Positions 4,495-61,709 of a DNA stretch of 64,000 nucleotides are shown one piece after another. The position numbers were made by a program, and so were the translations under genes. The number at the start of each line of letters is the position of its first letter. The stretch's first letter is position 1. The DNA is from a virus (lineage: Duplodnaviria; Heunggongvirae; Uroviricota; Caudoviricetes), in the IMG/VR virus record IMGVR_UViG_3300028603_000019, positions 131,877 to 195,876 of that record. The stretch is one strand, 5' to 3'. The notes under the pieces are model-generated. The model did no database searches. It saw only the letters and a program-made list of their open reading frames with translations, and was not told the origin of the DNA.

Positions 4495-5388
4495 TCACCT
4501 ATCATAGCGATCCAGCACTTCCCGAAGCTCCCTGATCATCTTGTCGACCGGAACTTCACGTTTCACAGCACCATCAATGGACCCGTAGTGAATTTCCAGA
4601 CATTGAAGTAGAAGCTCCTTGATACCGTCTTTATCAGGAGCATGTCTTAGAGACGAAGAATTGTATACCTCTTCCAGGGATTTTTCTTTCACGTCGAACC
4701 AATCACGAATCTTCTGTTCAGACCATTCACCACGGCGAATAGATTTTAGGATCTCACTGTTGCGTTCCAGGTCCAGATCGTGCTCTACCAGGATTTGTTC
4801 ACATTCAAGGAGAAGTCGAATTGTGTGGTAAGCGAACTTGACATCATAACCATGTTTCTCAATAGAAGCCTGGCGCTTGGGATTGGAAGCATTGGACTTG
4901 GTCCCAATCTTGTGGAGCTGTGAATACGCGTAGCCCCGAAACTTGTGCCATGCCTTCTTGGACAGAAACACGTTTCGGTTGTCACGGACCAGTTGACCGA
5001 TCTGAGAAGCAAAGAGGACACACCGTTGTGGGACATGAATGATATCCACCATATTCGGATTGTTCTCCATGGCCAAGTGGAAGAACTTCACGATGGAATA
5101 CACGGCAAAATCATACTCTGTTCTGGCTTCATCGTCCTTGATGTGATGCTGCTGCCAGACCTCGAATCTCTGCTTCTGGATTCCGAATCCAGGGATCTCA
5201 CCCCTCAGATGCGGAAACACGTCTTCCTTCGGGGGAATGCAGAAACCAACAATGTCCATGTCCGATGTATCGGAACTGACACCGTAGGATACACTTCCCG
5301 TGATCACCTCATAGTGGATGTTTTGTGGCAACCACTTTGGAGGCTGAATCAGGTTCTTGGATTTTGCTAGTTGGACTCGAGAAGCCAT
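4495..5388 (-). CDS. Pol-beta superfamily nucleotidyltransferase (RlaP / T4 nrdC.11-like)
   Basis: GSVSYG...SDMD catalytic motif; ENNPNMVDI and YDVKFAYHTIRLL segments. Confidence 0.85.
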   Translation of the reverse strand: MASRVQLAKSKNLIQPPKWLPQNIHYEVITGSVSYGVSSDTSDMDIVGFCIPPKEDVFPHLRGEIPGFGIQKQRFEVWQQHHIKDDEARTEYDFAVYSIVKFFHLAMENNPNMVDIIHVPQRCVLFASQIGQLVRDNRNVFLSKKAWHKFRGYAYSQLHKIGTKSNASNPKRQASIEKHGYDVKFAYHTIRLLLECEQILVEHDLDLERNSEILKSIRRGEWSEQKIRDWFDVKEKSLEEVYNSSSLRHAPDKDGIKELLLQCLEIHYGSIDGAVKREVPVDKMIRELREVLDRYDR

Positions 5389-5774
5389 TTCGTGACCATT
5401 TCCTCTTCCAAATCAAATGCCTCTACTTCCCACGGGGCATCCTCATACGCCCCATCCCATTCTTCGCCCATCCACTTGAGGTTGAATCCCTCTTCCAGAT
5501 GGCCTTCGATGTATTGCTTGACATGAACCATTTCGTGAAACAGGACGCGGATCATGTCGGCAGGCTTGAGTTTCTTGTCAATGGTGATGCTGATCGGTTC
5601 CTCTTCATCAAACGAGGTCAGACCCATTTGGTGATCTTCCAGTTTTTCGAATGAGAGGACGATTTCCAGATTTACCAGATCGAGGTATTCACAGGCAAAG
5701 AGAAATGCCTTGTCCAGAAGGTCTTCGGAGAGTTTCTTGGGAAGCGGACCGTCAATCTCATAATAGTAGGACAT
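5367..5774 (-). CDS. Zincin-like HEXXH protein, paralogue of 3088..3465
   Basis: LFHEMVHVKQ plus PWEVEA. Confidence 0.75.
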   Translation of the reverse strand: MSYYYEIDGPLPKKLSEDLLDKAFLFACEYLDLVNLEIVLSFEKLEDHQMGLTSFDEEEPISITIDKKLKPADMIRVLFHEMVHVKQYIEGHLEEGFNLKWMGEEWDGAYEDAPWEVEAFDLEEEMVTKWLLESN

Positions 5775-5804
5775 GTCGTCTACCTCTCTCTAGCTCTTGA
5801 TACC

Positions 5805-5833
5805 AATCTACTACGGGATGGGGGCCGGGTCAA
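5805..5833 (-). promoter_or_regulatory. Sigma70-type promoter for the leftward accessory operon
   Basis: Minus strand TTGACC-N17-TAGATT, with a GAGG RBS and ATG (5774) downstream. Confidence 0.7.
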
Positions 5834-5934
5834 CATCTATTTCTCACAAAAGTGAACTACCTGGAAACTGAAGACTTGCCGGTTTTGGATCACGTCCTTA
5901 GATAAATAGATAGATAAAAATATAGGAGAATGTT

Positions 5935-6534
5935 ATGCTTCGAGAATATATAAAGGAATCCTTCCTAAGACATCTAGCTGAGGGTCGGAATCCAAACTAT
6001 AAGATATTTCCCATCTTTGGAGAATATGTAACCGGGAAAACCATCAAGACTCCTCCTATTTTGACCAAACTTAAACTCAAAAATGCGTTCAAAAAATTAG
6101 GTGGACGTGATTCAGCTGCCAGAGATTCTATTATTCTAAACAGCGAAGCCGCGAAAAAGGTGGAAATCTTCCTGAGAGGACAGGAATTTAGAAAAGAGAC
6201 GAATGATTACGCCAAGATGAAAATCCATTTGAATGGGCTTCCACATATTTATGGAACATTCGTAAAAGATCAGGTCCTCTATAAAGATGTATATGGAGAT
6301 GAAGTTGAAGGAAAGTTTGTAACAAAATGGCCATATCCCGAAAGTGGCAATAACACCAGAAAATTAAAATTAACCGTTGAAACAGTCGTTGTTATAGCTG
6401 GAAGAAATTCCCCATTTGAAAATGAAGATCAGATCTGGTTTGCCTATATCTTTGCGCCACAAACGTCTGATCTGGTGAAAGATGCTAAATCTGGTTTATA
6501 CCGATTCTCTGCGACACGAGATATAATTACGTAA
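5935..6534 (+). CDS. Hypothetical cargo protein inside the IS605 element
   Basis: 199-aa ORF, GGAG RBS, ATAAATA late-promoter-like motif at 5902-5908; opposite strand to flanking phage genes. Confidence 0.75.
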   Translation: MLREYIKESFLRHLAEGRNPNYKIFPIFGEYVTGKTIKTPPILTKLKLKNAFKKLGGRDSAARDSIILNSEAAKKVEIFLRGQEFRKETNDYAKMKIHLNGLPHIYGTFVKDQVLYKDVYGDEVEGKFVTKWPYPESGNNTRKLKLTVETVVVIAGRNSPFENEDQIWFAYIFAPQTSDLVKDAKSGLYRFSATRDIIT

Positions 6535-6538
6535 TAGG

Positions 6539-6700
6539 TTATATCAATTCAATCTCAAAGTCCCTGCTTTCGGCTTTCTTTAGGAGTCTCTTGATTTCAA
6601 GGTTCATTCTACCGACAAGAAGTGGTTTCCTATACTTGGTAACGAAAATAATGTGAACCTTCAAGAAATATTTTCGATGATTCTTGCAAATATAGTCCAT
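6539..6700 (-). pseudogene. tnpA: Truncated IS200-type Y1 transposase (not in ORF track)
   Basis: Manual translation MDYICKNHRKYFLKVHIIFVTKYRKPLLVGRMNLEIKRLLKKAESRDFEIELI*. Contains the diagnostic HxxFVTKYR and stops just before the HUH motif. Confidence 0.88.
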
Positions 6701-6752
6701 TTAGACGGTTCCAGAGAATCTCATTTGTCTAAATACTTAGTAATATTAGAAC

Positions 6753-8060
6753 GTGAGATTTTCTTCCTTGTCCATCATGGGTTTCAAATATCGGATCTAT
6801 CCAACACCTGAACAGAAAATTCTGTTCAAACAGGTATTTGGTAACTGTAGACTCCTATGGAATATGTTTCTTGACAAGGAAATGAAGGAATATCAGGCGA
6901 CCAAGAAATTCAACTGGTATCATGCAAATTCCAAGTGTCTTCCGGGTCTCAAGAAGCAGATGGAATTCCTGAAGATCGGTCCTTCTCAAGCATATCAGGC
7001 GGCTTTGATGGATCTTGATCAGGCTATCAAGAGGAAGTGCAAAGACAAGGCTGGAACTGGATTTCCAAAATTCAAACGCAAGAATATTTTTGAAAATGGA
7101 TTTCGTGTCGTTCAAACTCCTGATAAATGGAAATGGAACGAGGGTCATATTACTGTTCCAAAAATAGGCAACGTGAAATGGAAGCTGCACAGGGATATTC
7201 CATCAGGGTTCTCCACGGTGACAATTTCCCAAGACGGAACTGATTATTACATTAGTCTGGTAGTCGAGGTTCAGGATAATAGTCCAGTTTCTGATATCCA
7301 ATCCATGAACAATGTAATTGGCATTGATCTCAACTCCAACGATCTTGCGGTCACGTCTGACGGTGTTATCCACCAGAACCCAAAGTTCCTCAAGAAGGAC
7401 CGGAACAAGATCAAGCGGCGACAAAGACAACTGGCACGGGCACAAGCTGGATCCAATCGAAGGAAGAGACAACACCTTGCCGCCAGGAAGGCATATCGGG
7501 ATGTTTCCAGGAAGCGAAGGGACTTTTTGCACAAGCTATCGAGGGATTTCGTCTCCAACTATGACTTGATATGCCTTGAAGATTTGAATGTGAAGGGGAT
7601 GCAAAAGTTCAATGGAACCATGGTTGGTGATGCCGGATGGAGCACACTAGTCGGGATGATCGGCTACAAGGCTACTCAAGCGGGCAAACGTGTCATCAAG
7701 ATCAATCGTTGGGCACCAAGTTCAAAATGTTGTAACAATTGCGGGGAAGTGAAAGCCAAGCTTCCTACTCATATCAGGACCTATTCTTGTAATCATTGTG
7801 GAGTATCCCAATCGAGGGATATCAATGCCGCATTGAATATCAGGGATTGGGGACTTCAAGATTACCTATTGTCTACCGAATCATTTGATCCGGATTCGAG
7901 ACCAACTACCGGTGGGACGCCGGAAAGTCACGGACGGGGAGATACCTCTATCGGGGTTGGAGCGCAAGCTCCTGCTAGATATGTATCGTTGAATCGTCAA
8001 AAGTTCCTTGGCTCTCTTGTAGTGACCGAGGAAGCCTGGAAATCTTCAGTTTCCAGGTAG
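6753..8060 (+). CDS. tnpB: TnpB RNA-guided endonuclease (start may be ATG 6777)
   Basis: GFKYRIYPT N-terminus; RuvC I GIDLN, RuvC II LEDL, Zn finger CxxC..CxxC, RuvC III RDINAALNI; all three catalytic acidic residues present. Confidence 0.95.
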   Translation: MRFSSLSIMGFKYRIYPTPEQKILFKQVFGNCRLLWNMFLDKEMKEYQATKKFNWYHANSKCLPGLKKQMEFLKIGPSQAYQAALMDLDQAIKRKCKDKAGTGFPKFKRKNIFENGFRVVQTPDKWKWNEGHITVPKIGNVKWKLHRDIPSGFSTVTISQDGTDYYISLVVEVQDNSPVSDIQSMNNVIGIDLNSNDLAVTSDGVIHQNPKFLKKDRNKIKRRQRQLARAQAGSNRRKRQHLAARKAYRDVSRKRRDFLHKLSRDFVSNYDLICLEDLNVKGMQKFNGTMVGDAGWSTLVGMIGYKATQAGKRVIKINRWAPSSKCCNNCGEVKAKLPTHIRTYSCNHCGVSQSRDINAALNIRDWGLQDYLLSTESFDPDSRPTTGGTPESHGRGDTSIGVGAQAPARYVSLNRQKFLGSLVVTEEAWKSSVSR

Positions 8061-8085
8061 TTCACCGACCTGACTTTCAGTTAAT
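7870..8085 (+). ncRNA. Putative TnpB omegaRNA (reRNA) with ~20-nt guide CGACCTGACTTTCAGTTAAT at 8066-8085
   Basis: Overlaps the tnpB 3' end. Scaffold-like ACCGGTGGGACGCCGGAAAGTCACGGACGGGGAGA and TCGTTGAATCGTCAA, ending in the RE hairpin and GTAGTTCAC. 5' boundary approximate. Confidence 0.7.
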
Positions 8086-8104
8086 TCAATCTTATGGATA
8101 GGCA

Positions 8105-9463
8105 TCACTTGATTTCCTCTAGGTCACTTAGGAACTGTTCCTTCACAGTCGTCTTGTTCCAGAACGTGAGTTCCTTCTTGATTTTCTTGATCTCCTCGAT
8201 CAATTCCTTTACCAGTTCCAGAGTCAATGAGCTGATATTCAGTCGCAGGAGCCGGTCAATATCGGTATCAAGGGCATCAGTCACTTTCAGGATTTGTTCT
8301 CCCACCTGATCCTTCTTTTGATTCTTGAATACAATCAGGTCGTCCAGAACTCCCTCAATAAATTGATGCTTCACTTTCAGCCACCGAGCTTCCTCATTCA
8401 ACTTGGCCTGCATGGACTTAATTCGAGCATCCAAGATACCATTCCTGAAAAGGCAGAAGTCTCTCACAATATCCCTCTCGTCGGAATACTCCTTGAGATT
8501 TCCATCTGCCCCTATCACGGTCAGGTTTTCGGTGTGAGCCTTCACGAGTTTGAAAGCACCCCTGATCTTTTCATCATCCCAATTCGCTGAAGTCTGTTGC
8601 TTCAGCTTCACCTCAAACTTGAAGCCAGACTTATCGCATAGATCATCGTATCCAACGATATGGCCTTCATCTTCCAGTTTATCCAGAACCTTGATGTATC
8701 CCTCTCGGTCGAACCCATAAGGCACTTCGGTAATCAGGAGAACCGTCTTGGATTTTTTCTCGAAGGTGCCCTCGCAATAGTGACGGTTCTCACTTTCGTC
8801 AAACCGGACTTTACCATTGAAATGAGGATACTTGACCTTGATTCGTTTCCCGATCTTTCCGGTTTCCACAAATTCCTTGCAAGCTCGGGCAATATCGACC
8901 GGATCCCTCGGGAGAATATCGGTTGCAAATCCGGTTGCAATCCCCTTCACCCCGTTGGCAAGAACCAGAGGAATCACCGGAACATAGAAAGCCGGTGGCT
9001 CATGTTCTGGGTCGGAGTGAACAGGAGCCAGATCAAGATCCTTGACATACTTGGCAAAATTCTTGTGAAGTCGAGTATAGGTATACCGGGCAGCCGCGGC
9101 TTCCTGGACCAAGCGTGTGCCAAAAGATCCTCGTCCCTCAATCAGGCAGATATTATTGTTCCAGTCTGCTGCCATAAGTTGTCCCGTGCCTTGGGCCGAG
9201 GTTTCTCCGTGGTTGTATCCGTATCCAGAGACCACACCCGCAACGGCAGAGACTTTCTTGAACTCAGTCGAGGTATTCTTGATGGAACTATAGAGGTAGA
9301 ACCTCTGGCTTGGTTTCATTCCATCAATGCCATTTGGAATGGCCCGATTCTCTACCGTGTAAAGGGCAAAGTTTCGCCATTCATGACTGGCCAGCTTTGA
9401 AAGGGGATAAATCCCGGTTGAAGAATCAGAAGCTTGATCTTCCATAAATTCAGACAGCGACAT
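8105..9463 (-). CDS. gp52: DNA topoisomerase II medium subunit (GyrA/ParC-like)
   Basis: RAIPNGIDGMKPSQR, YNHGETS, catalytic AAARYT, GIATGFAT. Start moved to MSLSEF (AGGA RBS) because the ORF-track ATG overlaps the -10 box. Confidence 0.95.
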   Translation of the reverse strand: MSLSEFMEDQASDSSTGIYPLSKLASHEWRNFALYTVENRAIPNGIDGMKPSQRFYLYSSIKNTSTEFKKVSAVAGVVSGYGYNHGETSAQGTGQLMAADWNNNICLIEGRGSFGTRLVQEAAAARYTYTRLHKNFAKYVKDLDLAPVHSDPEHEPPAFYVPVIPLVLANGVKGIATGFATDILPRDPVDIARACKEFVETGKIGKRIKVKYPHFNGKVRFDESENRHYCEGTFEKKSKTVLLITEVPYGFDREGYIKVLDKLEDEGHIVGYDDLCDKSGFKFEVKLKQQTSANWDDEKIRGAFKLVKAHTENLTVIGADGNLKEYSDERDIVRDFCLFRNGILDARIKSMQAKLNEEARWLKVKHQFIEGVLDDLIVFKNQKKDQVGEQILKVTDALDTDIDRLLRLNISSLTLELVKELIEEIKKIKKELTFWNKTTVKEQFLSDLEEIK

Positions 9464-9491
9464 GTTCATTCCTAAGATTGGTCGTTGGTTC

Positions 9492-9520
9492 ATAATAGCT
9501 CATTTGAGGTCAAAATGCAA
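9492..9520 (-). promoter_or_regulatory. Sigma70-type promoter for gp52
   Basis: Minus strand TTGCAT-N17-TATTAT, back-to-back with repeat copy 1. Confidence 0.6.
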
Positions 9521-18240: not shown

Positions 18241-19959
18241 ATGCACATTCACTTCCAAAAAATCAGGTACCAGAATCTCCTGTCTGTTGGCGATCATCCC
18301 GTCGAGGTAAATCTGGAGAAGTCTCGAACCGTTCTCATATCAGGTAAAAACGGACATGGAAAATCCACGCTCTGTGAAGCCCTTGTCTTTGGCCTGTATG
18401 GGAAACCGTTTCGGAAAATCAACAAACCTCAACTGGTAAACTCCATAAACAAGAAGGGTCTCCTGGTTGAAATATGGTTCAGGATAGGTGGTGATGAATA
18501 CCTGGTAAAACGTGGCATCAAGCCTAACATTTTGGAGATTGAGAAGAACGGGAGCCCTCTGGACAAGGATGCTGCTACCAGAGACCAACAGGAATATCTG
18601 GAAGACAAAATTCTTCGGATGTCAGCAAAGTCATTCACTCAAATCGTGATCCTTGGTTCGGCAGTCTACACTCCATTCATGGACCTGGCGGCTGCACAGA
18701 GGCGTGAAATTATTGAGGACCTTCTGGATATTCAAGTGTTCTCGGTTATGGCTGGTCTCCTGAAGGAGAAAATCGGTGATAATAAGGCGGCACTGACTTC
18801 TACCAATCACGAATTGGACCTGGTGAAGGTTCGTTTGGATTCAGCAGTCGAGAATCGCGATAACATCCAAAAAATGCTATCTGAGGAAACCGACAAAATC
18901 AAGTCTCAGATGAATGAACATGTCTCGACGATTGAGACCGAGATGAGACAAATCAAGGTTCTTGAAGAGGAAATGTCAGACCTCGAAAACACGATCACCG
19001 ATAAGGATCAAGTCACCTCCGAAATTCAAAGCATCAAGAAGGTGATTCGCGACCTTGAATTCAAACAAAAAACACTTCGGGATGAGATCCAATTCTATGA
19101 CGACCACGAGAATTGTCCGACCTGCAAGCAGTCCATAACGGAAAAATTCAAGGAAAATCTGGTATCAACAAGGAAGTCCAACCTATCAGAGATAGAGGCA
19201 GGCATCAATAAATTAACCACTCGTCTTGACGTTGCAGAAAATAGACTTCAAGTGATATCAGGGGTTGCAGATAAGATCACTTCGGTATATAATCAGGTAT
19301 CAGAGCACAAGATCAATATACGGATCTCCAAAAGTGCTCTACAAGACTTGAAGCAGAAGCTGGAGACCTCTTCTGAAGCCGAACTTCAAGATCAACACGA
19401 ATCCAAAATCAAAGAGTTGGAAGATTCCAAGAGGAAATTGCTTCGGGCTCAATCTGGTCACCTCGAGGACAAGGACGTCCTTTCCGTCGTGACTGCCATG
19501 CTCAAGGATACGGGCATCAAGACTAGTATCATCCGGCAGTATGTCCCGATCATGAACCAGATGATCAACAAATACCTTTCCAGGTTTGAACTGTTCGTTG
19601 ACTTCAATCTGGACGAGACTTTCAACGAGACCATAAAATCTCGGCACCGCGATGCGTTCTCATTCAGCTCTTTCTCAGAGGGTGAGAAGATGAGAATCAA
19701 TCTCAGCATCATGTTCGCGTGGCGAGCTATTGCGAAAATGAGAAACTCGGTATCAACGAACATCTTGTTCCTCGACGAGATTCTCGACGGGCCCAGCGAC
19801 TCGGAAGGTGTAGAAAATCTCATCGACATCATCAACACGATGGGCGACAATGATAACATCTTCGTGATCTCCCATAGATCAGATACCTTTGCCGAGAAAT
19901 TTGAACAGCACCTTCAGTTTGAGAAAGTGCGGAACTTCACGTTTGTAGCAGGAACTTAA
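18241..19959 (+). CDS. gp46: Recombination ATPase, Rad50/SbcC-like
   Basis: GKNGHGKST, CPTC Zn hook, FSEGEKMR, LFLDEILD. Confidence 0.96.
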   Translation: MHIHFQKIRYQNLLSVGDHPVEVNLEKSRTVLISGKNGHGKSTLCEALVFGLYGKPFRKINKPQLVNSINKKGLLVEIWFRIGGDEYLVKRGIKPNILEIEKNGSPLDKDAATRDQQEYLEDKILRMSAKSFTQIVILGSAVYTPFMDLAAAQRREIIEDLLDIQVFSVMAGLLKEKIGDNKAALTSTNHELDLVKVRLDSAVENRDNIQKMLSEETDKIKSQMNEHVSTIETEMRQIKVLEEEMSDLENTITDKDQVTSEIQSIKKVIRDLEFKQKTLRDEIQFYDDHENCPTCKQSITEKFKENLVSTRKSNLSEIEAGINKLTTRLDVAENRLQVISGVADKITSVYNQVSEHKINIRISKSALQDLKQKLETSSEAELQDQHESKIKELEDSKRKLLRAQSGHLEDKDVLSVVTAMLKDTGIKTSIIRQYVPIMNQMINKYLSRFELFVDFNLDETFNETIKSRHRDAFSFSSFSEGEKMRINLSIMFAWRAIAKMRNSVSTNILFLDEILDGPSDSEGVENLIDIINTMGDNDNIFVISHRSDTFAEKFEQHLQFEKVRNFTFVAGT

Positions 19960-59343: not shown

Positions 59344-61709
59344 GCCGATATGATCCCGATAATTTCTGAAGCTCCGGTATCAGTCACTAGCGTGATGGTT
59401 CGGTCAGTGATTTCTGATATCCTATATTCCGTTTCACTTAAGGTTTCTCCGATACCAAGCTTCTCTATTATTCCCGATGGACCACGAACCATTGCCATCG
59501 TTCCGCTACCTTCGTGAACAGGAGATATGAATTCACTGGCTGATACCCCACCTGTTTCGGGTGGCGTTACCACTCCTTCGGTGAACCTGTCCTTGGCAAT
59601 CGAATTGTCCACTTCATCGGTTTGCCATTCGGCTTCGTCGGGGGCAGCTCCCATGCCAACGTCACGATCGGGTGGTTCCGGCATTTCCACGGCTTCTGCA
59701 TCTTCTGCACCAACGCCGTCTTCCGCTTCCTCACCCTCTTCTGGGGAGACTGATCCTGGACCACTGGAAGACCCGGAATTGATATTCTGATTCCTTAATA
59801 TGGAAGAACCATTCAGGTGCACCGTTCCCCCAGCCGATACATACACGGTCTGACCACCTATCGTGGCATCCACACTCGCCCTGATTATAGTAGACAGACC
59901 CTGAACGGAAACAGTCCCCGACGCTCCGACCAGAAAATTATCGGACATTGTGATATTGGTGTTGTCGCCAGATAGTCTGATATTCTGACTTCGAAGATCC
60001 AGGATATCCGAACCCGTGATCTTGATGTCCTCGGCCTTCGTATTCAGTTGAGAACCAACACCAATGTAGGCATCTTCTCCGACCTTGATATTGGTATCCT
60101 CTTCACTTTCGATGAATACCTTCTTGGATTTCAAGTGAAGTTCTTCCGAGGATGATATCACGATTTTCTTCCCGACCTTCAGGTTCAGGTTTTCCACGTT
60201 TGATTCAAGGTCCAGGCGGGCTGCCCGCATCTGTAATTCCTCGCCGCCGTTGAACATGATTGCTCCGGCGGCTCCAACTATCATGTTTCCATGGACGATC
60301 TGTTGATAATCTCCCCTGATTTCCTCGATCATGTTCCCTTTTACCAGAACGTGACTGTCACCCTCGACTGTAATGATATTCCTTCCGCCGATGTGCATGT
60401 GATAATGTTGATCGTGGATATCAAACGTGTCCTTGGTAGATCTGTATGTATTGGTAGATGGAGTCATTTGAATGTAAGACCCCGACGGATGCCATATCAT
60501 TATTCTCTCTCCGCCTTGCGTCGAGTCGAGCTCAACAACGTGTCCACCAGGAGTTTCGATGACCCGGTTGTATGGATACACGGCTTGATATCCGGACGAC
60601 GGCTCGTCCCAAGTGGCCTGCATTCCGTCACTCTGGGCCCTAACTGGATCTCCACTTGATGTGCGAGCTTCTGTCTGAAATCCAGTGTCTGGAAGGGGTC
60701 TAGGAGACGTGGAACTGATTCCAGAGCTGGTCGACCAGTTGCGGATAGCTTTGGCGTCTCCTAGACCATCCTTAAGACCCACCCCAGCGTGTATCCGGCC
60801 ATACCAAGGCCCCCATCCTCCAACTGCGGCTTTATCTAGGGCATATCGAATTTGAGTGACAATTCCTTCTCTGGTATTGTCCTCTACGAGTCGTCTTCCT
60901 GTGTCTGTCTCGTAGTCATTTCCCATTCCCCCACCAGTATAGAGTTGATATGGACCGAATGAGGCTTCCTTGCCATTCAGTGATCCGTTTCCGGTTCTCC
61001 TGATTTGAGATTGATATGCACCCATGCCTTCATGTCTGAATATTCTCACGGCAATATCGGGATCAATATTCCTAAGGGCTGCCTCCTCTCGAATCACCTT
61101 TTCAATATCACCACGGCTCATATCTTCGGGGTATCCTGGTGATATCCCATTCAGGTCTGTTGTCGTGTCCTGATCCTGTCCCCAGGAGTTTCTGTTTCCC
61201 ATGGGACGATAACCCATGATACCACCGCCGGCAATCTCCACGTCTCGGTGTCCGTTGGTCTCTAGCGGAAGGTTATAGGTTTCGTCGAGGTCTTCACCGC
61301 GGGCTGTCCTAGGAAGGGTGGGTTGACCGTAATCGTTGTGTCGCCTGGACATTGCTCCGCGATCATTGCCATCACCCAGGGCTATGCCCCATCCATACTT
61401 CCCGGGGTCGACAGGCTCCGTCATTTGTGTTGGGATCAATCCCAGGATCATGGGCTGCTGAGCATCCCTGCCATCTATGAAGAACCCGAACACCCATGCA
61501 TTCAAGGGCGGGACCACGAAATTCGTGTCATGTGAACCTATGATCAGTGTTGCCCAGGGGAGATCCTCTGTCGAGACATCTTCAAGGGAGCCGTGAACCC
61601 CGAAAGCCCGGACTTGAACACGACCTTCCAGACGGGGATCCTCGTTATTTTCAACTACCCCCACAAAGAACAGTGGTTCTATGAAACCTAGACCTGATGG
61701 AATATTCAT
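59340..61709 (-). CDS. gp5: Baseplate hub / puncturing protein with internal lysozyme-like domain
   Basis: GVVENNEDP..GRVQVR OB fold; internal RHEG..GPYQL..WGPW; YPYNRV.ET..GH; beta-helix repeats. Confidence 0.9.
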   Translation of the reverse strand: MNIPSGLGFIEPLFFVGVVENNEDPRLEGRVQVRAFGVHGSLEDVSTEDLPWATLIIGSHDTNFVVPPLNAWVFGFFIDGRDAQQPMILGLIPTQMTEPVDPGKYGWGIALGDGNDRGAMSRRHNDYGQPTLPRTARGEDLDETYNLPLETNGHRDVEIAGGGIMGYRPMGNRNSWGQDQDTTTDLNGISPGYPEDMSRGDIEKVIREEAALRNIDPDIAVRIFRHEGMGAYQSQIRRTGNGSLNGKEASFGPYQLYTGGGMGNDYETDTGRRLVEDNTREGIVTQIRYALDKAAVGGWGPWYGRIHAGVGLKDGLGDAKAIRNWSTSSGISSTSPRPLPDTGFQTEARTSSGDPVRAQSDGMQATWDEPSSGYQAVYPYNRVIETPGGHVVELDSTQGGERIMIWHPSGSYIQMTPSTNTYRSTKDTFDIHDQHYHMHIGGRNIITVEGDSHVLVKGNMIEEIRGDYQQIVHGNMIVGAAGAIMFNGGEELQMRAARLDLESNVENLNLKVGKKIVISSSEELHLKSKKVFIESEEDTNIKVGEDAYIGVGSQLNTKAEDIKITGSDILDLRSQNIRLSGDNTNITMSDNFLVGASGTVSVQGLSTIIRASVDATIGGQTVYVSAGGTVHLNGSSILRNQNINSGSSSGPGSVSPEEGEEAEDGVGAEDAEAVEMPEPPDRDVGMGAAPDEAEWQTDEVDNSIAKDRFTEGVVTPPETGGVSASEFISPVHEGSGTMAMVRGPSGIIEKLGIGETLSETEYRISEITDRTITLVTDTGASEIIGIISA

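Follow-up and report, generated by a model that had tools for sequence, protein, structure and literature searches.

Insertion sequences (ISs) of the IS200/IS605 family have no terminal inverted repeats, and their Y1 transposase TnpA recognises hairpins at the element ends in a strand-specific manner (PMC13565253). Non-restorative homing independent of TnpA, driven by the RNA-guided nuclease TnpB, has been demonstrated in plasmids (PMC11870625, as summarised in PMC13565253) and has been proposed in theory for co-infecting phages (PMC13565253). Genes encoding TnpB are common in phages (411 of 50,697 records), and the role of many of those found in lytic phages is unsettled. T-even phages carry free-standing homing endonucleases of the Seg and Mob types, of which SegB acts in the tRNA region. 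Here we analyse an IS605-type tnpB locus in a T4-like phage with a complete IMG/VR virus record of 210,571 bp; the 64,000-nt stretch covering bases 131877–195876 of that record is referred to as the window, and positions are those of the window unless given as genome positions. The 2.3-kb block lying between the topoisomerase gene gp52 and a 135-aa phage gene is a mosaic and does not represent a single transposon. On its right is an IS605-type element that has kept tnpB, the guide RNA (omegaRNA) scaffold and the right end, but in which the left end is gone and only 53 codons of tnpA are left. On its left is an AT-rich phage accessory gene, separate from that element and preceded by a late-type promoter motif of its own; a micro-derivative of the same IS, 50 nt long and inverted, has inserted at a TTTAT-type site just 5′ of this open reading frame (ORF). 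The mosaic structure taken alone is very probable, while the complete statement, in which the mosaic is joined to homing by a late-expressed TnpB, is given a probability of about 0.5. The features of the block are as follows.

5852–5901, minus strand: 50-nt micro-element consisting of a 19-nt left-end leader (CT followed by AAGGACGTGATCCAAAA), a hybrid hairpin and the right-end tail TAGTTCAC
5902–5908, plus strand: late-promoter-like motif ATAAATA, 33 nt before the 199-aa ORF, whose complement (T)ATTTAT resembles the target-adjacent motif (TAM) and abuts the left-end side of the micro-element
5935–6534, plus strand: 199-aa ORF with no assigned function, an AT-rich phage accessory gene
6539–6700, minus strand: tnpA stub of 53 aa, matching positions 3–41 of 121 of the Y1_Tnp model (N-terminal strands only) and ending before the HUH motif
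6729–6735, plus strand: late-promoter-like motif CTAAATA, 42–48 nt before the ATG of tnpB
6777–8060, plus strand: intact tnpB of 427 aa, with the Pfam domains HTH_OrfB_IS605, OrfB_IS605 and Cas12f1-like_TNB
7898–8065 (start about 7898), plus strand: omegaRNA scaffold with seven covariation-supported helices, overlapping approximately the last 54 codons of tnpB
8035–8065, plus strand: right end, formed by a 23-nt hairpin (8035–8057; stem CCTGGAAA/TTTCCAGG, loop TCTTCAG) and the tail TAGTTCAC (8058–8065)
8066–8085, plus strand: predicted guide CGACCTGACTTTCAGT..., directly 3′ of the right end and within the 39-nt spacer before the gp52 stop

With IS605-type elements (Helicobacter pylori IS605, IS608 and ISDra2) and the tnpB-only IS1341-type, the locus shares the TnpB domain set with its D-E-D RuvC triad, a Y1 tnpA trace divergent from tnpB, a right end made of a subterminal hairpin plus a short tail, and an omegaRNA that overlaps the 3′ end of tnpB and takes the 3′ flank as its guide. 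Canonical left ends, found in relatives and in a mini-element elsewhere in the genome, lie 18–20 nt after a TTTAT-type motif, the comparable distance to the target motif in IS608 being 19 nt. The locus differs from these elements in that tnpA encodes only 53 aa, the tnpB strand has no left end, the appearance of a terminal inverted repeat is created by an inverted micro-derivative, TnpB shares only 30–36% identity with characterised enzymes, and the scaffold subfamily, which no Rfam model matches, was encountered in phage-like contigs only.

An inverted repeat of 34 nt with 88% identity (5852–5885 and 8032–8065) brackets the ORF, the tnpA stub and tnpB exactly, apparently because 5852–5901 is an inverted micro-element rather than a left end in the tnpB orientation. 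The hairpin of this module is a hybrid, with a 5′ arm of the left-end type and a loop and 3′ arm of the right-end type, as expected if a deletion had joined the two similar end hairpins. Left ends in the clade share a common layout comprising TTTAT, approximately 17 nt ending in AAAA, and a hairpin with the loop TCTT[TC]AG. Such a left end is located on the tnpB strand just upstream of tnpB in three related elements (L013, L024 and L026, with the loop TCTTTAG in the last two), another can be read with the same layout in L012, and the related elements L015 and L027 have no clear left end. The reverse complement of 5845–5915 is colinear with the left ends of the mini-element, L013, L024 and L026 and then runs straight into TAGTTCAC, and the micro-element has a TTTAT flank of its own on the minus strand, the complement of ATAAA at 5902–5906. 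On this sequence evidence the left module is probably an independently inserted, inverted micro-derivative containing both a left end and a right end, one that would be unable to pair with the right end of the tnpB copy for strand-specific excision by TnpA, and the main tnpB copy itself appears to have no left end. Removal of the micro-element joins the left flank to the promoter region of the ORF, and the ORF is therefore not enclosed by transposon ends. A regulatory repeat resembling the promoter early stem-loop (PeSL) was considered as an identity for the left module and ruled out, as only four loci carry the module and all are IS-derived. In L012 (3560–3610), the inner left-end hairpin is the exact reverse complement of the right-end hairpin core, which suggests a small flip of loop and stem.

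The ORF within the left part has a GC content of 38% (33% at third codon positions), compared with ~47% and 54–60%, respectively, in the flanking genes and an overall 35% in the tnpA stub. It has no Pfam or PHROG match, tblastn against phages gave no matches, and its structural models are of low confidence (AlphaFold2 predicted local distance difference test score 40.5; ESM Atlas 0.32). One homologue was retrieved from among 1.8 billion representative proteins (195 aa, 52% identity over the full length); its gene is flanked by tRNA genes on a phage-like, AT-rich contig that has neither tnpB nor IS ends nearby. Because this sole homologue lies in another phage without a nearby IS, the ORF is probably a real, mobile accessory gene independent of the IS. 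The initial annotation had called it a 199-aa cargo: the gene stands, with a full-length homologue in its favour, and its status as transposon cargo does not, as the homologue has no IS. Occurrence of the cargo in relatives without IS ends, which the same annotation had listed as counting against itself, was found in part, in this other phage. The N-terminus of the protein (…SFLRHLAE/G; 5935–5985) and that of the homologue (MISFRRFLEE/S; L016:758–790) resemble the capsid-targeting sequences of T4 internal proteins (MKTYQEFIAE/). Similar N-termini occur elsewhere in this genome (MKTFRQFMNE, MPLPSFSEFLAE, MIPFRDFLLE and MTLPSFLEFITE), and a loose motif of this type is only about two-fold enriched at N-termini; packaging of the 199-aa protein in the virion may occur and is mentioned as a lead only.

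Late-promoter-like motifs had been noted before both the cargo and tnpB, and these hold up as members of a motif class, [ACT]TAAATA, with 63 sites in 421 kb of strand (both strands counted); among 255 crude genes, 21 have such a site at −60 to −5, roughly a tenfold excess over expectation. A scan for sigma-70 promoters and terminators yielded nothing exceeding shuffled sequences. Complementing the ATAAA core of the late-type promoter motif gives the TTTAT-type target motif of the IS clade, and both 50-nt micro-elements of the genome abut AGATAAAT (window 5902–5908; genome 19578–19583), so that late promoters may be preferred insertion sites of this clade.

The tnpA stub is the sole Y1 trace in the 210-kb genome, in which no further Y1_Tnp match was detected, and a word-based search for full-length relatives of the stub found none. 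Only 4 nt separate its stop from that of the ORF, placing the break in tnpA within ~10 nt of the end of the ORF gene. Compared with the features that define an IS605 element, the main copy possesses a right-end hairpin and conserved tail on the tnpB strand, has the 53-aa stub only in place of an intact Y1 HUH TnpA, and lacks a same-strand left-end hairpin after a target or TAM motif, the last of which is present in the mini-element at genome 60205–60487. The element at tnpB is unable to transpose by itself, because tnpA is a stub and no left end lies on the tnpB strand. The initial annotation was therefore right that a divergent tnpA is cut to 53 aa before HUH and that transposition has been lost.

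TnpB itself is intact. Its start is the ATG at 6777, as in relatives, and not the GTG at 6753; residues 3–360 align to ISDra2 TnpB (8BF8/8EXA; E 3e-47), with D184, E268 and D348 at the catalytic positions of that alignment, and the zinc finger is represented by two CxxC pairs, CCNNC (318) and CNHC (338). The earlier claim that all RuvC residues are present is thus confirmed, and a nuclease-dead TnpB regulator of the TldR type was ruled out by the retention of all three. A database entry of 415 aa that is 100% identical to TnpB is the same sequence shortened, which fits a contig end. Two independent assemblies appear to break within or just after the 3′ part of tnpB and the scaffold, one here, an NCBI contig of 12,052 bp (P0002), and one of the L013 phage (L036:2–1123); these breaks could result from a repeat or from presence/absence polymorphism.

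Downstream, the scaffold is conserved up to 8065 in seven elements, as shown by aligning the window copy with the corresponding parts of six related elements. In the consensus fold, 44 pairs form seven helices and 23 of the 44 show compensatory changes; 95.5% of cells pair compared with 35–43% in controls with slid partners, and none of 500 shuffles reached the observed values. No Rfam family matches the scaffold. The right-end tail TAGTTCAC is identical in five of the six relatives (L012, L013, L024, L026 and L027), while the hairpin stems vary and covary. A complete right end and omegaRNA, also claimed from the sequence initially, are thus well founded. An IStron, in which a group I intron is combined with an IS605 element, was ruled out, with no Rfam match at E ≤ 1 within 5500–8400 and none at the mini-element.

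The closest relatives place this element in a clade associated with phages. The best TnpB matches (45–54% identity) come from metagenomes, lower-scoring ones including cyanobacterial TnpBs, and every examined context of the 45–54% matches was phage-like by gene content, one being an 81.6-kb IMG/VR contig. Between them, these contigs encode gp32, T4 baseplate proteins, DNA ligase, RNR, ThyA, Acb1, a SegE-like protein and NAMPT, carry tRNA arrays and include heme oxygenase and bilin reductase genes (ho1/pebS). The related tnpB is solo in each examined contig and often antisense to its neighbours, with no Y1 tnpA within 3–5 kb in the contexts examined, leaving the window element as the only examined member with a tnpA trace. 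A degenerate pattern of the scaffold core had no matches in 185,579 prokaryote genomes and matched one IMG/VR contig. In six elements, TTTAT or TTAT ends 18–20 nt before the left-end hairpin, which makes this motif a candidate TAM of the clade; as the original left junction of the main copy has been lost, a TAM beside its own target is hypothetical. Empty sites of the relatives' elements were sought with an L024 junction pattern, by megablast of L033 and L012 and by look-ups of the L013 and L015 neighbour proteins, and only occupied sites were recovered.

End modules were found at only four loci in a genome-wide search, the window and three others, one of which supplies a second scaffold and a second predicted guide.

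Genome 60205–60487, minus strand: canonical mini-element of ~283 nt with left end, CTAAATA, scaffold and right end

The order within this mini-element is TTAT, AC followed by AAGGACGTGATCCAAAA, a hairpin with the loop TCTTTAG, 66 nt containing CTAAATA, the 168-nt scaffold and TAGTTCAC. Its scaffold (genome 60205–60372, minus strand) is 100% identical over 168 nt to window 7898–8065, although the locus (G000:C1:60165–60545; L002 ~1461–1841) lies 71 kb before the window start and the nuclease is encoded 78 kb away. The mini-element lies within the phage tRNA array, oriented as the tRNAs, and is inserted in a variable loop right after CTTAT, its flanks resembling the two halves of a class II tRNA gene with the anticodon GCT (5′ half at ~60488–60537). 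The split gene has a 7-bp acceptor stem, the T-loop GTTCGATCC, G73, CCA and a long D stem resembling that of the phage tRNA-Ser(CGA). It was not called by Rfam or by ARAGORN at default settings, and for the joined halves ARAGORN calls a tRNA-Ser(gct) only at a relaxed threshold that also yields spurious reverse-strand calls; judged from these features, the interrupted gene is likely a tRNA-Ser(GCU). The predicted guide of this copy is ACCGCCATAGAGTTCG, a T-arm/acceptor sequence of the tRNA, and the predicted junction of an intact tRNA-Ser allele is ...GGCGCTTAT(AC)/ACCGCCATAG... (here and below, the slash marks the insertion point). This guide had no match within three mismatches in four related or clade phage records, two IMG/VR scans with the tRNA halves found nothing and no intact tRNA-Ser allele, and neither this guide nor that of the main copy has a further match in the phage genome. 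In another phage, a 45%-identical TnpB element (L027:2400–5400) also lies inside a tRNA array, with an IS607-type tnpB and resolvase 1.3 kb away, and its right-end flank resembles the 3′ portion of a class II tRNA not called by ARAGORN.

Like the PATEs and MITEs (palindrome-associated and miniature inverted-repeat transposable elements) of the IS200/IS605 family, which are non-autonomous and keep a left and a right end, the mini-element retains both ends, together with the whole scaffold, and the 50-nt micro-elements keep both cleavage-site contexts around a single hairpin. They differ from these in the unusually small size of the micro-elements and in that the mini-element carries a full guide-RNA scaffold, lies 78 kb from the gene of its nuclease and interrupts a tRNA-like gene within the phage array.

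The locus might spread as follows. TnpB and both guide RNAs would be made late in infection, and the complexes would cut alleles of co-infecting relatives that are uninterrupted next to TTAT/TTTAT. One target would be ...TTAT/CGACCTGAC..., located downstream of gp52, and the other the intact tRNA-Ser gene. Repair of the cut by recombination with this genome would then copy the insertion, and neighbouring markers, the 199-aa gene among them, would be carried along by co-conversion. Cleavage of the phage's own copies by TnpB would be prevented by the right end, which takes the place of the TAM. Such a process would constitute TnpA-independent (non-restorative) homing, analogous to the action of the T4 Seg and Mob endonucleases. 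Speculatively, TTAT at 6539–6542 is the original target motif of the main copy, giving the empty site ...GGTTAT/CGACCTGAC....

The locus resembles the free-standing Seg and Mob endonucleases of T-even phages in its intergenic position, flanked by conserved T4-like phage genes to which it is antisense, and in having a late-type promoter motif, one predicted target in a tRNA gene region and a predicted co-conversion of neighbouring markers; in contrast to those enzymes, recognition would be by an RNA guide plus TAM rather than by protein, and self-immunity would come from the insertion itself. The plasmid TnpB 'gene drive' of IS605, or non-restorative homing, would share with it a TnpA-independent spread by cutting of the uninterrupted homologous site (PMC11870625; PMC13565253), the differences being that here the vehicles would be co-infecting lytic phages, the element is transposase-dead and a putative second guide would act in trans. 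That tnpB is common in phages is already known and the homing idea is published; what this locus adds is a scaffold family restricted to phages, a predicted guide supplied in trans from within a split tRNA gene, and predictions that are clear. It offers a concrete and testable case: the transposase is lost and the nuclease intact, the scaffold is supported by covariation, the targets of the two native guides can be predicted and a TAM has been inferred. A wider proposal, which is tentative and on the doubtful side, is that a TnpB-omegaRNA lineage resident in T4-like phages no longer needs a transposase and acts as an RNA-guided homing endonuclease to move from one co-infecting phage to another, here with one nuclease and two guides, one supplied in trans from the mini-element that splits tRNA-Ser. 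If true, this would be an RNA-programmed counterpart of the Seg and Mob endonucleases, including a SegB-like target in the tRNA region.

Several alternatives to a mosaic with homing were weighed. According to the initial annotation, the block is one IS605 element with both ends, remodelled by replacement of most of tnpA with cargo and with the empty site ...TTCTCACAAAA/CGACCTGAC...; the 34-nt inverted repeat brackets its contents exactly, distant relatives lack the whole block, and GC content is low in the ORF and the tnpA stub alike. This arrangement is nevertheless very improbable, as IS200/IS605 ends are strand-specific hairpins and not inverted repeats (PMC13565253), and the left module is oriented opposite to the four canonical left ends (L013, L024, L026 and the mini-element), is fused to its own right-end tail TAGTTCAC, has its own TTTAT flank on the other strand and is of the same kind as a 50-nt module standing alone at genome 19528–19577, while the homologue of the ORF occurs without any IS. 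Neither the placement of the ORF inside the putative ends nor a single remodelled element could therefore be upheld, and the predicted empty junction ...CACAAAA/CGACC... is unlikely, lacking the TTTAT-type motif that precedes the six canonical left ends of the clade. A tidy IS with cargo between inverted ends can thus be an artefact of a nearby micro-derivative, which matters for the annotation of cargo-carrying IS605 elements. Alternatively, the locus could be an inert wreck, a decaying IS605 insertion in which tnpB and the scaffold are intact only through recency and bring no benefit to the phage or to their own spread. Such decay would account for the truncated tnpA, the lost left end and the further debris in the genome, including an unrelated tnpB C-terminal remnant (genome 19179–19364), and it draws on the frequency of tnpB in phages (the 411 records above) and on there being no relatives through which selection could show. 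Inertness fits less well with the nearest relatives, in which tnpB stands alone on phage-like contigs, tnpA is missing and the scaffold is conserved and covaries, a pattern pointing to persistence in phages without a transposase, with the absence of the scaffold core from the 185,579 prokaryote genomes, with the retention of all catalytic residues and a late-type promoter motif, and with the complete identity of the two scaffold copies over 168 nt; we regard it as unlikely, but as an explanation to be taken seriously.

A further possibility is that TnpB serves in killing competitors or targeting the host, cutting phages too diverged for repair or a host tRNA-Ser gene and so giving exclusion without spread. 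The intact nuclease, two guides and late-type promoter motifs would suit such a role, one guide being a tRNA T-arm/acceptor sequence of a kind that tends toward conservation, and homing endonucleases are known to act in this way at low homology (PMC13565253). Here, however, the tRNA guide and tRNA halves were without matches in the four phage records (≤3 mismatches) and two IMG/VR scans, respectively, and both guides are ordinary right-end flanks, as insertion history alone predicts, making this role quite improbable. Homing remains the function we favour for TnpB and its guides, at somewhat short of even odds when considered apart from the structure. Weighing against the combined reading of mosaic and homing, neither an empty-site allele nor a presence/absence polymorphism was found (the best gp52 relative being 68% identical), the TAM is derived from only six left-end flanks, and TTAT at 6539–6542 could be chance. 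Moreover, the ORF (38%) and the tnpA stub (35%) both fall below the ~47% GC of their flanks, a similarity with which joint arrival of the whole block is compatible, and the decay of tnpA together with the several remnants fits plain erosion equally well.

The block is flanked by two phage genes, in a genome with 33 tRNA genes and one tmRNA gene.

5367–5774, minus strand: left-flanking 135-aa phage gene with an HEMVHVKQ motif (phrog_16532)
8105–9493, minus strand: right-flanking gp52 (topoisomerase II medium subunit)

The nearest gp52 relatives in IMG/VR and metagenomes are 57–68% identical, and both the 199-aa ORF and tnpB are absent from every one of them. In three (L009, L010 and L017), a homologue of the 135-aa gene begins at the gp52 stop or ≤~50 nt from it; as this gene directly follows gp52 without ORF or tnpB in these relatives, the 2.3-kb stretch 5775–8104 is an insertion relative to them, though the gp52 relatives are too diverged for the insertion junction to be visible. 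A distant-mode search of GenBank phage DNA with 4500–9500 as query gave weak matches to the flanking genes only, relatives of the locus sought with TnpB and with the ORF as queries were not found in IMG/VR or prokaryote genomes, and an exact scan of IMG/VR with the right flank returned no matches. The homologue of the 135-aa gene overlaps, at its start, the stop of gp52 in L009 and L010; here, 2.3 kb of mostly antisense DNA lies between the two genes, so that expression of the 135-aa gene must rely on read-through or on a new promoter.

Three smaller remnants lie elsewhere in the genome.

Genome 19528–19577: stand-alone 50-nt micro-element of the same kind as 5852–5901
Genome 19179–19364: remnant of another tnpB, from its C-terminal end (TNB domain, E 3e-21), an 86-aa frame ~29% identical to the window TnpB
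Genome 5721–5769 (L004): solo right end of 49 nt, 94% identical

The tnpB remnant follows a major-capsid-like gene and a terminator, and the stand-alone micro-element is located ~160 nt further on (L030/L003). The solo right end follows ~26 codons of an ORF starting MLRQIINTGLQANDRTGDPLRIAM, whose frame reads through to a tail shared with TnpB (...EAWKSSVSR, then stop), and it looks like an insertion into the start of a gene.

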